A stretch of DNA of 64,000 bases from Escherichia phage ECO340P1. Shown piece after piece: positions 59,060-60,982 of the stretch. The position numbers and the translations under genes were made by a program. The stretch is from the sequence record OP172791; one strand, 5' to 3'. The first letter of the stretch is position 1. Each line of letters opens with the position of its first letter. The notes beneath the pieces were generated by a model. The model saw nothing but the letters and a program-made list of their open reading frames with translations, had not been told where the DNA came from and ran no database searches.

Positions 59060-59138
59060 TGGAGGCGGGAATCGGATTAGAACCGATGATCTCCAGCATA
59101 TGAAACTGGCGAGGACGACCAGACTCCTCTATCCCGCT
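59060..59138 (-). tRNA. tRNA-Met (anticodon CAT)
   Basis: Hand-folded cloverleaf: acceptor AGCGGGA/TCCCGCC (1-72 mismatch), anticodon loop TTCATAT, T-arm ATCGG-TTCTAAT-CCGAT, CCA encoded. Confidence 0.6.
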
Positions 59139-59144
59139 ATTATG

Positions 59145-59214
59145 TATCCCGTGCTGGATTCGAACCAGCATCACAATAAGTTGTGGAACTCTTATCCTGT
59201 AAGTCTAACGGGAA
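59145..59214 (-). ncRNA. tRNA-like element with non-canonical anticodon arm
   Basis: Canonical T-arm GCTGG-TTCGAAT-CCAGC and 6/7-bp acceptor stem, but only 70 nt and no 5-bp/7-nt anticodon stem-loop (best fit CACAA-CTTA-TTGTG). Confidence 0.4.
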
Positions 59215-59216
59215 AC

Positions 59217-59290
59217 TGGTTGTTTCGACAAGAATCGAACTTGTGTCTCACGATTATCAGTCGTGGGTTCTACCATTGAACTACGAAACA
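59217..59290 (-). tRNA. tRNA-Ile (anticodon GAT)
   Basis: Acceptor TGTTTCG/CGAAACA, D-arm GTTC-AATTGGTA-GAAC, anticodon arm CACGA-CTGATAA-TCGTG, T-arm ACAAG-TTCGATT-CTTGT, CCA encoded. Confidence 0.75.
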
Positions 59291-59296
59291 TTTAAT

Positions 59297-59373
59297 TGGT
59301 CGGAATTGCAGGATTCGAACCTGCGACCCTACGCTCCCAAAGCGTATGCTCTACCAAACTGAGCTAAATTCCG
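59297..59373 (-). tRNA. tRNA-Pro (anticodon TGG)
   Basis: Acceptor CGGAATT/AATTCCG, anticodon arm TACGC-TTTGGGA-GCGTA, T-arm GCAGG-TTCGAAT-CCTGC, CCA encoded. Confidence 0.8.
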
Positions 59374-59378
59374 TTATA

Positions 59379-59455
59379 TGGCTGGTCTGTCTGGATTTGA
59401 ACCAAACCTACGACAGTCAAAGTGTCGTGTGCTACCGGACTACACTACAAACCAA
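59379..59455 (-). tRNA. tRNA-Gln (anticodon TTG)
   Basis: Acceptor TGGTTTG/CAGACCA, anticodon arm CGACA-CTTTGAC-TGTCG, T-loop TTCAAAT, CCA encoded. Confidence 0.75.
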
Positions 59456-59552
59456 TAAATCATTTAATGAAGGGCAACCAGAAGATGTGTGAGAGAAGGA
59501 GAAAACCATGAGTAAAAGAGAAAGTTTTCTGGCAACCCTTTATTAAATAATT

Positions 59553-59626
59553 TGGAGCGTTCTACGAGGATCGAACTCGTGCCGCCGACTTGGAAGGACG
59601 GAATGCTACCGCTACACCAAGAACGC
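59553..59626 (-). tRNA. tRNA-Gly (anticodon TCC)
   Basis: Acceptor GCGTTCT/AGAACGC, anticodon loop CTTCCAA, T-arm ACGAG-TTCGATC-CTCGT, CCA encoded. Confidence 0.7.
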
Positions 59627-59637
59627 CCTACATCTTT

Positions 59638-59667
59638 ACTATACTACATTTTACTATTGGTTGTCAA
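59638..59667 (-). promoter_or_regulatory. sigma70-like promoter (CTATTGACAA-N18-TATAGT) driving the downstream tRNA sub-operon
   Basis: Minus-strand -35 at 59662-59667, -10 TATAGT at 59638-59643, about 12 nt upstream of the tRNA-Gly 5' end. Confidence 0.55.
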
Positions 59668-59940
59668 TAGTTTTATTGAGCGGGACAGTGACGAGTATCC
59701 CATTGGGTGACTAGCCCTACGTTCGGTAAGCTAACTTAAAATAATACAAAACCAAAGTCAAATATTATTCTTCGTTGCTGTCGATGGGAGAGCCGCTTCT
59801 TCTTTTGCCCCATCCAACCCTACTCCGGTCAAGTTTCAGGCAACTCTTTTTGTGATCAATACAATACTAAGAACACTGTCTTTCGAGCAGACCTTGTGCA
59901 CAGGATACGACGATCAATCACAGTGCTCTTAATGTTGTGT

Positions 59941-60015
59941 TGGTGCTCCCACTCTGAATCGAACAGAGATCCACGGATTACAAAACCGTTGTAATAGCCA
60001 TTATACTATAGGAGC
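59941..60015 (-). tRNA. tRNA-Thr (anticodon TGT)
   Basis: Acceptor GCTCCTA/TGGGAGC, anticodon loop TTTGTAA, T-arm CTCTG-TTCGATT-CAGAG, CCA encoded. Confidence 0.7.
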
Positions 60016-60021
60016 AAAGCT

Positions 60022-60098
60022 GGGACTCGGCAGGATTCGATACCTGCAATTCCAGAAGCCTCTTGGCGACTGGGGGTTTACCTTAACTCTACAAGTCC
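60022..60098 (-). ncRNA. tRNA-like element with 8-nt T-loop and no canonical anticodon arm
   Basis: Perfect 7-bp acceptor pairing GGACTTG/CGAGTCC and T-arm GCAGG-TATCGAAT-CCTGC, but the interior folds as one long imperfect hairpin. Confidence 0.35.
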
Positions 60099-60105
60099 AT
60101 AATTC

Positions 60106-60191
60106 TGGCGATGAGTATAGGATTTGAACCTATATCGTTCTTTCGAACACGGATTAACAGTCCGCCGCTTAAACCATTCAGCCAACTCATC
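60106..60191 (-). tRNA. tRNA-Asn (anticodon GTT) with an atypical long variable arm
   Basis: Anticodon arm GCGGA-CTGTTAA-TCCGT, discriminator G, T-arm ATAGG-TTCAAAT-CCTAT, plus a 15-nt variable arm GTTC-GAAA-GAAC-GAT; 86 nt with CCA. Confidence 0.65.
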
Positions 60192-60197
60192 TTAATT

Positions 60198-60285
60198 TGG
60201 TGGTGAGTGATGGAGTCGAACCACCCGAATCGCAATGATAACAGATTTACAGTCTGCCCCGCTACCCCTACGGAATTAACTCACC
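60198..60285 (-). tRNA. tRNA-Tyr (anticodon GTA), type II
   Basis: Acceptor GGTGAGT/ACTCACC, anticodon loop CTGTAAA, long variable arm, T-arm GGTGG-TTCGACT-CCATC, CCA encoded. Confidence 0.7.
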
Positions 60286-60415
60286 TAAATACTAATATTT
60301 AAATTCTTTTTAAAATAGCCAGTGTTCACACCACTAACTATGAGTTATCGGTAAGATGGTGGGGGCCATCTGCCGAAAGTTTACTCTATTAAAGTAAGCT
60401 ATATTAAAAAGAACT

Positions 60416-60501
60416 TGGCGGTAGATGTAGGACTCGAACCTACACGCCGTTTCCGACTACAGTTTAGCAAACTGTCGTGGCTACCATTTCACCAATCTAC
60501 C
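60416..60501 (-). tRNA. tRNA-Ser (anticodon GCT), type II
   Basis: Acceptor GGTAGAT/ATCTACC, anticodon arm ACAGT-TTGCTAA-ACTGT, long variable arm, discriminator G, CCA encoded. Confidence 0.7.
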
Positions 60502-60505
60502 AATC

Positions 60506-60596
60506 TGGCGGAAGGAGGGAGAGTCGAACTCCCAAGGCTCTTTCAAGCTCGGCGGTTTTCAAGACCGTTTTCGTCGCCACGTCGATTTGCCCTTCC
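60506..60596 (-). tRNA. tRNA-Ser (anticodon TGA), type II
   Basis: Acceptor GGAAGGG/TCCTTCC, anticodon loop CTTGAAA, variable arm GCT-TGAAAG-AGC, T-arm GGGAG-TTCGACT-CTCCC, discriminator G. Confidence 0.65.
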
Positions 60597-60604
60597 ATAC
60601 TTAT

Positions 60605-60634
60605 AATCTAACATAAAATAATGTTAGTTGTCAA
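60605..60634 (-). promoter_or_regulatory. sigma70-like promoter (CTATTGACAA-N18-TAGATT) upstream of tRNA-Ser(TGA)
   Basis: Minus-strand -35 at 60629-60634, -10-like TAGATT at 60605-60610, a few nt upstream of the tRNA 5' end. Confidence 0.45.
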
Positions 60635-60830
60635 TAGTTTTTTAAAACATTTTACCATGAATGGTGACTCCACCAACCCCCGTTCTCAACGAACGGTGCT
60701 CTTCGAGCATTTATGTCTTCTAATATAACCGTGGCCTTTGTTTATAATGTCTGACATACTTGCCTCATTCTCTGCCACCATGATCAGTAGTGGGTTCAAA
60801 TCACTTGAGCTAATTCATGTTAAAATGTTC

Positions 60831-60905
60831 TGGTGTCTTTACAAGGAATCGAACCTTGACTAAGAGTTTAGAAGACTCCTGTGCTATCCATTACACCATA
60901 AAGAC
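60831..60905 (-). tRNA. tRNA-Arg (anticodon TCT)
   Basis: Acceptor GTCTTTA/TAAAGAC, anticodon arm GGAGT-CTTCTAA-ACTCT, T-arm CAAGG-TTCGATT-CCTTG, CCA encoded. Confidence 0.75.
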
Positions 60906-60907
60906 GT

Positions 60908-60982
60908 TGGTGGCCCTGACTGGTTTCGATCCAGCTACCTATCGGTTATGAGCCGACAGCTCTCCCATTGAGCTACAGGGCC
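60908..60982 (-). tRNA. tRNA with CAT anticodon, Ile2 (lysidine)-like or Met
   Basis: GGCCCTG-TA-GCTCAATGGGAGAGC-T-GTCGG-CTCATAA-CCGAT-AGGTA-GCTGG-ATCGAAA-CCAGT-CAGGGCC-A-CCA; acceptor, loop and T-stem resemble E. coli tRNA-Ile2 as recalled. Confidence 0.6.

Follow-up and report, generated by a model that had tools for sequence, protein, structure and literature searches.

Since T4 and T5, large virulent coliphages have been known to carry clusters of tRNA genes. The T4 cluster holds eight tRNAs and the stable RNAs rnaC and rnaD. T5 carries about 24 tRNAs together with many small open reading frames (ORFs) and HNH endonuclease genes in 14 kb, and in T5 and BF23 several strong sigma-70 promoters, 'stable' RNAs and 'tRNA-like' RNAs lie among the tRNA genes. 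Closest to the locus studied here are the clusters of the genus Phapecoctavirus (Stephanstirmvirinae, phAPEC8-like myoviruses of about 150 kb). The locus lies in Escherichia phage ECO340P1 (sequence record OP172791), of which a stretch of 64,000 nucleotides, called the window below, was analysed; twelve tRNA genes, all of them on the minus strand, occupy 2.3 kb of it. Very probably these genes form the tRNA cluster of a virulent, phAPEC8-like (Phapecoctavirus) coliphage, working along the scheme of transcription, processing and decoding that is proposed below.

The cluster as such adds nothing new, and its value lies in a class II tRNA-Asn, an initiator-type CAU tRNA and a group of structured spacer RNAs. 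The class II tRNA-Asn, which is labelled plain 'tRNA-Asn' in hundreds of deposited phage genomes, is the one lead most worth following, as it would offer a direct test of whether asparaginyl-tRNA synthetase (AsnRS), seryl-tRNA synthetase (SerRS) and anti-phage tRNases read the shape of a tRNA or its anticodon.

The cluster and its counterparts in other phages

The 2.4 kb around the cluster are 99.3% identical to the Escherichia phages dw-ec, anhysbys and Mt1B1_P17 and 95-99% identical to about 70 other Phapecoctavirus genomes, and 69 records span at least 80% of this 2.4-kb query, with a top match of 99.3%. Across the records of the genus (phAPEC8, ASO2A, anhysbys, Mt1B1_P17 and others) the DNA is 95-99.3% identical and the gene order is the same, the order found here being that of ASO2A and Mt1B1_P17. 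By its near-identical sequence and gene order to annotated members, the locus is the Phapecoctavirus (phAPEC8-like) tRNA cluster. It was already known, since the exact cluster is annotated in GenBank, and it is an ordinary feature; the ASO2A record holds the same twelve tRNAs and the same closing terminator. The records of the genus carry no annotation of the promoters, of the structured spacer RNAs or of the odd nature of the Asn and Met genes described below.

Essentially no difference separates the cluster from the deposited ones, and the relatives vary by insertions and deletions. An insert of about 90 bp between Gln and Pro in many relatives (e.g. L001, about 1975-2067) is missing from the window (59374-59378), and ZCKP1 has an 800-bp insert carrying a gene for a helix-turn-helix protein. 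In phiWec181 and phiWec190 (L267/L268, about 1346-1476) the Asn gene is lost and a 42-codon ORF stands in its place, and phiWec190 also has a different Ser gene, a different Thr gene and additional inserts. As compared by sequence, the cluster is modular within the genus. A protein-coding reading was rejected, as only short, mostly antisense ORFs and no convincing one are found in the 2.3 kb; six 'hypothetical proteins' annotated across the cluster in one record are not annotated in the others.

The twelve tRNA genes are as follows.

59060-59138, minus strand: tRNA(CAT), initiator-type (ARAGORN; Rfam, 47.2 bits; 'pseudo' in one record)
59217-59290, minus strand: tRNA-Ile(GAT) (ARAGORN; Rfam, 72.2 bits)
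59297-59373, minus strand: tRNA-Pro(TGG) (ARAGORN; Rfam)
59379-59454, minus strand: tRNA-Gln(TTG) (ARAGORN; Rfam)
59553-59626, minus strand: tRNA-Gly(TCC) (ARAGORN; Rfam)
59941-60015, minus strand: tRNA-Thr(TGT) (ARAGORN; Rfam)
60106-60191, minus strand: tRNA(GTT), 'Asn', with a class II body of 86 nucleotides (nt) (ARAGORN; Rfam)
60198-60285, minus strand: tRNA-Tyr(GTA) (Rfam, 39 bits; Tyr in ASO2A, 'pseudo' in Mt1B1_P17)
60416-60501, minus strand: tRNA-Ser(GCT) (ARAGORN; Rfam, 56 bits)
60506-60596, minus strand: tRNA-Ser(TGA), non-canonical (ARAGORN at 80%; sub-threshold tRNA-Sec model; tRNAscan-SE on the identical ASO2A sequence)
60831-60905, minus strand: tRNA-Arg(TCT), predicted to read AGA (ARAGORN; Rfam, 66.3 bits)
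60908-60982, minus strand: tRNA(CAT), Ile2-type, predicted lysidine-dependent AUA reader (ARAGORN; Rfam, 62.6 bits; 'Ile-CAT' in ASO2A)

ARAGORN was run at its default and at a lowered (80%) threshold, and the Rfam tRNA model RF00005 was applied with its gathering score of 29 bits. At the default setting ARAGORN returned ten tRNAs, with borders and anticodons exactly as in an earlier note on this DNA, which had folded twelve by hand; at the gathering score RF00005 found the same ten and Tyr(GTA) (60201-60285, 39 bits). Eleven of the twelve genes thus score at or above gathering (39-72 bits) and Ser(TGA) falls below it, being recovered at lowered thresholds. The tRNAscan-SE annotation of ASO2A, in which the Ser(TGA) and Tyr sequences align as identical to those of the window, lists all twelve genes with the same anticodons, the second CAT gene as 'Ile-CAT', while the Mt1B1_P17 record marks Tyr and Met-CAT as 'pseudo' and omits Ser-TGA. 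Software therefore gave neither different anticodons nor clearly fewer genes, and the hand-folded set, with its anticodons and borders, holds. A further low-threshold ARAGORN candidate, 'Thr(agt)' at about 59666-59745, was discarded, as it overlaps promoter P3 and has many mismatches.

The 3' CCA is encoded by all twelve genes. The discriminator base is G73 in Asn, Gln and both Ser tRNAs, A73 in Tyr, Pro, Thr, Arg, Ile and Ile2, and U73 in Gly, and it fits the expected identity (rules from PMC9976931 and general knowledge) in 11 of 12 genes, an unexpected U73 being found only in Met. On these sequence features, all twelve genes are probably functional.

The earlier note had also called the repertoire T4-like. 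Of the eight anticodons that ARAGORN calls in the T4 record (ttg, taa, tcc, tgg, tga, tgt, cat and tct), seven are present here, only Leu-taa being missing, which bears the description out. The shared anticodons include that of a CAU-encoded tRNA-Ile, and both clusters have packed tRNA genes co-transcribed, here by prediction, with small stable RNAs of unknown function; the T-even phage RB68 also has Tyr, Asn and a CAU tRNA. In contrast, gene-by-gene identity to T4 is only 57-70%, Leu(UAA) and segB are absent here, and five genes are extra (Ile-GAU, Asn, Tyr, Ser-GCU and the initiator-like gene); no similarity to T4 rnaC or rnaD was detectable in the cluster. By sequence comparison the likeness to T4 is one of repertoire, not of close orthology.

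The architecture, for its part, matches that of the T5/BF23 tRNA region. Shared with T5 and BF23 are the interspersed promoters (here predicted ones) and the 'stable' and 'tRNA-like' RNAs, a homolog of RNA3 directly downstream of tRNA-Asn, an Ile2(CAU) gene, a tRNA-Tyr of the same family, and an initiator-type tRNA with a 1x72 mismatch and U73, a similar gene being annotated as tRNAfM in T5. The cluster differs from T5 in its compactness and fewer tRNAs and from both phages in its tRNA-Asn, which in T5 and BF23 is a 78-nt class I tRNA; for the other T5 stable RNAs no homolog could be detected in the cluster.

Transcription, processing and decoding

Three predicted promoters and one terminator frame the cluster.

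61192-61226, minus strand: promoter P1, TTGACA at 61221-61216, 18-nt spacer, TG-extended TAGGAT at 61197-61192; within AACTATTGACAA; conserved in L267/L268
60605-60639, minus strand: promoter P2, TTGACA at 60634-60629, 18-nt spacer, TG-extended TAGATT at 60610-60605; the -10 ends 9 nt before Ser(TGA)
59638-59672, minus strand: promoter P3, TTGACA at 59667-59662, 18-nt spacer, TATAGT at 59643-59638; 11 of 12 positions match the consensus
58926-58944, minus strand: intrinsic terminator closing the cluster, AGCCTCC-TTATT-GGAGGCT followed by TTTTT; annotated as terminator in ASO2A

The hexamers were found exactly at the three positions (about 61221, 60634 and 59667) at which the earlier note had placed internal promoters. 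They match 10-11 of the 12 positions of the sigma-70 consensus, with a TG-extended -10 in P1 and P2, and all three promoters share the 12-mer AACTATTGACAA, which has three copies in the window, these three, where 0.05 would be expected. Each -10 ends 7-12 nt before the next RNA gene, and P1-P3 are kept in phiWec181 and phiWec190 while their flanks diverge. A generic promoter scan of the window gave no enrichment over shuffles (7 sites, 6.9 expected), and neither did CTATTGACAA with one mismatch (10 sites, 7.3 expected); the case for predicted promoters is therefore made by the exact 12-mer, its position and its conservation, not by the generic scan. A fourth exact copy of CTATTGACAA lies outside the cluster at 53780-53789 on the minus strand (TCTATTGACAAAAC...), after an A/T-rich stretch and upstream of a gene start at about 53720, and is probably, from its context, another promoter of the same type.

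A terminator scan found no intrinsic terminator between the promoters, and its other minus-strand matches are tRNA arms. The cluster had been described as split into sub-operons: the promoters on which this view was based are supported, but the insulation is not, because no terminators separate the units. As predicted from these signals, one read-through unit with two internal booster promoters is a better description than three insulated sub-operons. Two sub-threshold Rfam matches at 58919-58989, RyhB (29 bits, gathering score 55) and MicA (24 bits, gathering score 41), were rejected, as they sit on the terminator hairpin.

In the proposed scheme, host sigma-70 RNA polymerase would start at the three near-consensus promoters and read through to the terminator at 58926-58944, so that, with no terminators in between, as many as three promoters would supply the genes further downstream. 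The polycistronic transcripts would then be cut into twelve tRNAs by RNase P and 3' processing enzymes of the host, and the same processing should free several structured non-tRNA RNAs from the leader and the spacers. The tRNAs would read mostly A/U-ending codons (AGA, ACA, AUA, GGA, CCA, CAA, UCA, AGY, AAY and UAY) and thereby sustain phage translation. As a second, non-exclusive role, the set could replace host tRNAs lost by depletion or cleavage in the course of infection. Both late-translation support and buffering against tRNA-targeting defences, which had been suggested for the cluster, fit published work (PMC10264068, PMC11555353, PMC12409363).

Codon usage was compared between 64 ORFs of the window and 36 coding sequences of E. 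coli MG1655 from one 49-kb locus rich in highly expressed genes. In the window ORFs AGA is enriched 7.5-fold, ACA 5.6-fold, AUA 5.2-fold, GGA 2.9-fold, AAU 2.8-fold, AGU 2.7-fold, UCA 2.6-fold, CCA 2.2-fold, UAU 2.0-fold and CAA 1.8-fold, these being upper estimates, and the G/C-ending synonyms are depleted. Genome-wide E. coli values give roughly 1.4-4-fold enrichment in the same direction. The earlier claim that the set includes rare-codon decoders agrees with the 5-7.5-fold enrichment of AGA, ACA and AUA against the MG1655 sample, and the comparison supports, at the level of sequence, codon supplementation for a 39% G+C phage in a 51% G+C host.

Atypical tRNAs and the weighing of alternatives

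The gene, the borders and the anticodon of 'Asn(GTT)' stand as first described, but it is not a standard tRNA-Asn, since its body is class II. Its D stem has 3 bp and its 3' end is G73-CCA; where a class I tRNA-Asn has a variable loop of 4-5 nt, 15 nt here form a helix (GUUC/GAAC) with a GAAA loop. A stretch of 19 nt (CGGCGGACTGTTAATCCGT) covering the whole anticodon arm is that of E. coli asnT, and the remainder is unrelated to asnT. The 3-bp D stem and the paired variable arm are those of the bacterial class II tRNAs (Ser, Leu, Tyr), with G73 as in tRNA-Ser; here, in contrast, they are joined to GUU and a host-Asn anticodon arm. The tRNA-Asn of T5, BF23 and RB68 is likewise different, being ordinary and 75-78 nt long. 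To our knowledge, a class II architecture for tRNA-Asn is not known in bacteria. No description of a long-variable-arm tRNA-Asn in phages was found in the open-access literature searched; one phage Asn-GTT is reported to score best with a non-Asn isotype model (PMC12482277).

Homologs occur in Klebsiella T4-like phages, Epseptimavirus and Justusliebigvirus-like phages (e.g. L004 1664-1748, L006 396-481, L007 1567-1648, L010-L117), and at least 80% of the 86-nt gene is present in 225 phage genome records. A pattern made of the Asn anticodon arm and a long variable region after it matched 108 stretches in IMG/VR, corresponding to 83 unique tRNAs, and 29 stretches in 185,579 bacterial and archaeal species genomes; a scan with the class I tRNA-Asn pattern gave at least 120 matches in viral sequences. 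Among the 83 unique IMG/VR homologs, 77 have G73 and 56 have U1:A72 as in asnT, and the variable region spans 12-20 nt (mode 15), with GNRA loops in about 49. In an alignment of 20 homologs 99.2% of cells pair and double-sided changes are found in 17 of 24 pairs, the four pairs of the variable-arm helix all covarying. By this comparative evidence, a class of class II tRNA-Asn(GUU) exists that is structurally constrained and strongly phage-associated. A further proposal remains tentative and on balance doubtful, namely that this is a large, apparently undescribed phage class that puts the host Asn anticodon arm and G73 on a class II scaffold, with the extra arm as an adaptation, e.g. for escape from host nucleases or modification-dependent toxins directed at tRNA-Asn (PARIS AriB, colicin E5-type) while AsnRS use is kept, or for altered handling by host factors.

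Two genes carry the anticodon CAT, and by their bodies neither is an elongator Met tRNA. The one at 60908-60982 had been likened to tRNA-Ile2, and it is indeed closer to E. coli ileX (59 of 77 positions) than to the initiator metZ (50 of 79). In common with ileX it has the acceptor stem GGCCC/GGGCC (C4:G69, C5:G68), G27.U43 and the loop CUCAUAA, which we take to be the determinants of TilS and which are all present. With the CAU tRNA of several T-even phages it shares about 95% identity, and its first 18 nt are those of T4 tRNA-Ile. From these features it is assigned as an Ile2-type AUA reader that should need host TilS.

For the gene at 59060-59138, listed as Met(CAT) before, the borders and the anticodon stand, but an elongator assignment does not, the body being initiator-type: 55 of 79 positions are those of metZ, with the differences mostly in the anticodon stem-loop, and A1xC72, G2:C71, C3:G70, A11:U24 and U73 are found. 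Methionyl-tRNA formyltransferase uses a weak or unpaired 1:72 and R11:Y24 (PMC9976931), and both elements are present here (A1xC72, A11:U24). In relatives position 1 is A, C or U and forms with residue 72 a mismatch or a weak U:A, never a strong pair, and the T stem shows several compensatory variants. The anticodon stem (C-G, C-G, A-U, G-C, U.G) is without the three initiator G:C pairs (29:41, 30:40, 31:39), and A73 is replaced by U73; for these two reasons the gene, which on its body plan is initiator-type and not elongator Met, is not classed as a standard initiator. The more distant relatives L019 and L169 retain GGG/CCC or A73. An initiator-type tRNA with a rewritten anticodon stem is a candidate for resistance to a VapC-like nuclease.

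Ser(TGA) is not called at default settings; it is found by ARAGORN at the 80% threshold and scores 37.4 bits with the Rfam tRNA-Sec model (gathering score 47), its best-scoring model owing to a D stem that is long and Sec-like and ends in a small loop. It has a 7/5 acceptor/T branch, a 4-bp anticodon stem, a long variable arm and G73-CCA. With a 7-bp acceptor stem, a 5-bp T stem and the anticodon UGA, not UCA, it was rejected both as an 8/4 'allo-tRNA' (a lead from PMC5389517) and as a Sec tRNA. Tyr(GTA) has an unusually long (5-nt) connector between the acceptor and D stems. Its sequence is that of the Tyr gene of rV5-like phages, and it falls in the family of T5 tRNA-Tyr, a tRNA that rescues phages from retron-Eco7 (PMC11555353) and that, according to the T5 record, can be converted into an effective suppressor. 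Thr(TGT) has a U31.U39 mismatch in its anticodon stem, and C41 where E. coli thrU has A41. Several of these genes recur in other phage families: Ser-TGA matches the annotated tRNA-Ser of unrelated, roughly 85-kb Erwinia phages (Hena2 and others) at 90% identity, which indicates that single tRNA genes are exchanged between families, the CAU tRNA is 95% identical in T-evens, and the Tyr gene is shared with rV5-like phages.

Certain observations weigh against the reading of the locus as a working twelve-tRNA cluster that supplies codons. Three genes are structurally atypical (Tyr at 39 bits, Ser-TGA sub-threshold in Rfam, Met with U73 and without the initiator G:C pairs), one annotation flags Tyr and Met as 'pseudo', and the Asn gene is missing from close relatives, so that individual members would be dispensable; moreover, the MG1655 sample is small and rich in highly expressed genes, which inflates the fold values. 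These low or sub-threshold scores and 'pseudo' flags, together with the Tyr connector, the 4-bp Ser-TGA anticodon stem and two tRNA-like elements that have no anticodon loop and no CCA, would fit a cluster in which Tyr, Ser-TGA, Met-CAT and the two elements are decaying pseudogenes and fewer than twelve tRNAs work. Such decay is improbable: the Tyr gene is unchanged in rV5-like phages and its T5 family member is active as a suppressor and in retron-Eco7 rescue (PMC11555353), Ser-TGA is 90% conserved in the unrelated Erwinia phages, Met combines compensatory T-stem changes with a maintained 1x72 mismatch, and the RNA3-like elements are conserved between T5 and the genus, with covarying stems. 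Purifying selection with compensatory changes is seen in the Met T stem and in the class II Asn. It is rather unlikely, though not implausible, that the main selected function is counter-defence and not codon supply, a strongly promoted cluster replacing tRNAs cut by anticodon nucleases such as PARIS AriB (Lys/Thr-UGU/Asn-GUU), retron-Eco7 PtuAB (Tyr), colicin E5-type nucleases (Tyr/Asn), colicin D (Arg) and VapC (initiator). Thr(UGU), Asn(GUU), Tyr, Arg and the initiator-type tRNA are known tRNase targets (PMC12409363, PMC11555353, PMC10264068), and strong phage promoters matter for Tyr rescue (PMC11555353). The C41 of the phage Thr(UGU) lies at the AriB cleavage site, and the change from A41 to C is 'Mut2' of T5 tRNA-Lys, one of two substitutions reported to give AriB resistance (PMC12409363), which counts for counter-defence, as do the body of the Asn tRNA, different from that of the host, and the initiator-type tRNA, which keeps an fMet-like body with a rewritten anticodon stem-loop. 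However, the Tyr, Gly and Asn anticodon loops are the same as in the host and the stems nearly so, there is no gene for Lys(UUU), the main target of AriB, and codon enrichment alone already accounts for the repertoire. The two roles are not exclusive, and counter-defence as a second role beside codon supplementation is plausible from the gene content.

The identity of the class II tRNA is weighed in the same way. In E. coli, GUU and G73 form a transplantable Asn identity set, and tRNA-Ser identity, which is independent of the anticodon, consists of the long variable arm, G73, G1:C72 and G2:C71 (PMC9976931). The phage tRNA(GTT) carries GUU and G73, and of the Ser elements it has the arm, G73 and G1:C72, with A:U at 2:71. 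It might thus be charged by SerRS, which ignores the anticodon, placing Ser at Asn codons as deliberate or tolerated mistranslation: the arm and G73 are the main Ser determinants (PMC9976931), the 15-nt variable region has the length of that in the phage's own tRNA-Ser(GCU), and the 3-bp D stem has C11:G24. This is highly improbable, as the 19 nt with the whole anticodon arm are those of asnT, the Asn identity set is complete (PMC9976931), G2:C71, which is conserved in E. coli tRNA-Ser, is A2:U71 here, the asnT-like U1:A72 prevails in 56 of the 83 homologs, and a form carried by hundreds of phage genomes would hardly be one that causes missense errors across the proteome. Judged by these elements, charging with Asn is much more likely than charging with Ser. 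Rescue from PARIS by T5 tRNA-Asn was set aside as proof that the class II form accepts Asn, the T5/BF23 genes being of class I.

Leader, spacer and tRNA-like RNAs

Outside the tRNA genes and promoters there remains about 1 kb of the 2.3-kb cluster (some 45%), a large part of which is conserved and structured. These segments are listed below, with minimum free energy (MFE) and z values where they apply.

60983-61185, minus strand: leader RNA of about 200 nt, from P1 to the first tRNA, with a 12-bp closing stem GUGUGGUAACAG/CUGUUACCACAU
60640-60830, minus strand: spacer between Arg and P2; ends conserved and middle variable in phiWec181/190; no Rfam match
60286-60415, minus strand: spacer RNA of 130 nt before Tyr, three hairpins inside a closing stem; z -4.2
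60016-60105, minus strand: tRNA-like RNA without anticodon loop, T5/BF23 RNA3 homolog, directly 3' of tRNA-Asn
59673-59940, minus strand: spacer between Thr and P3; 5' and 3' thirds conserved in relatives
59455-59552, minus strand: spacer with a long terminal closing stem; MFE -24.2 kcal/mol, z -5.1; conserved in relatives
59139-59216, minus strand: second tRNA-like element, with a 6-bp acceptor-like stem and the T arm GCTGG-TTCGAAT-CCAGC, no 7-nt anticodon loop and no CCA
58975-59059, minus strand: 3' trailer with hairpins and a degenerate T-arm-like motif GGGGTGCGACTCC; z -2.0

An Rfam search of the cluster returned no family for the leader or the spacer RNAs, and all spacers, compared by BLAST with T4 rnaC/rnaD and the T5 stable RNAs, gave no match except the RNA3 resemblance. 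The spacer RNAs would belong to the same unexplained 'stable RNA' class that has been known for 50 years in T4 and T5, and comparative data now permit structure models. The leader folds with an MFE of -76.8 kcal/mol (z -5.6, none of 200 shuffles being as stable), and among its 73 predicted pairs 9 are compensatory, 6 one-sided and 2 broken in comparison with phiWec181/190. The 130-nt spacer RNA, which is conserved across Stephanstirmvirinae, has copies of 73-96% identity in rV5-like (Vequintavirinae), Justusliebigvirus-like (J-01) and IMG/VR loci, beside different tRNAs (L008 1205-1335, L007 1291-1390, L063, L088, L037), with a compensatory helix swap between AGATGG/CCATCT and AAGTGG/CCACTT, and it seems, from its occurrence, to move together with the Tyr gene.

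The RNA3-like RNA is identical to T5 rna3 in 55 of 85 aligned columns and has the same predicted fold, an acceptor-like stem and two hairpins, in which the acceptor-like and T-like stems covary. The RNA3 motifs TAGAGTTAAG(G)TAAAC and ATTGC...ATCGAAT...GC are present in it, and it is nearly invariant in L267, L268 and L088, with a z of only -2.0. Its counterparts lie at 9878-9950 in T5 (L009) and 6619-6692 in BF23 (L273), and the T5 record calls it a 'tRNA-like RNA with unknown functions'. By this homology, the Asn-RNA3 module is common to unrelated phage families.

The second tRNA-like element (z -3.3) is conserved in the genus. It is called as 'tRNA-?(tcca)' (about 59144-59221) by ARAGORN, at the low threshold only; with an 8-nt loop and no CCA it was rejected as a tRNA and kept as a tRNA-like element. 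The 3' trailer is conserved in several genera (L088, L063, L037, L052, L267, L268). Next to the cluster lie a small hypothetical gene upstream and, downstream, small genes followed by the large terminase subunit.

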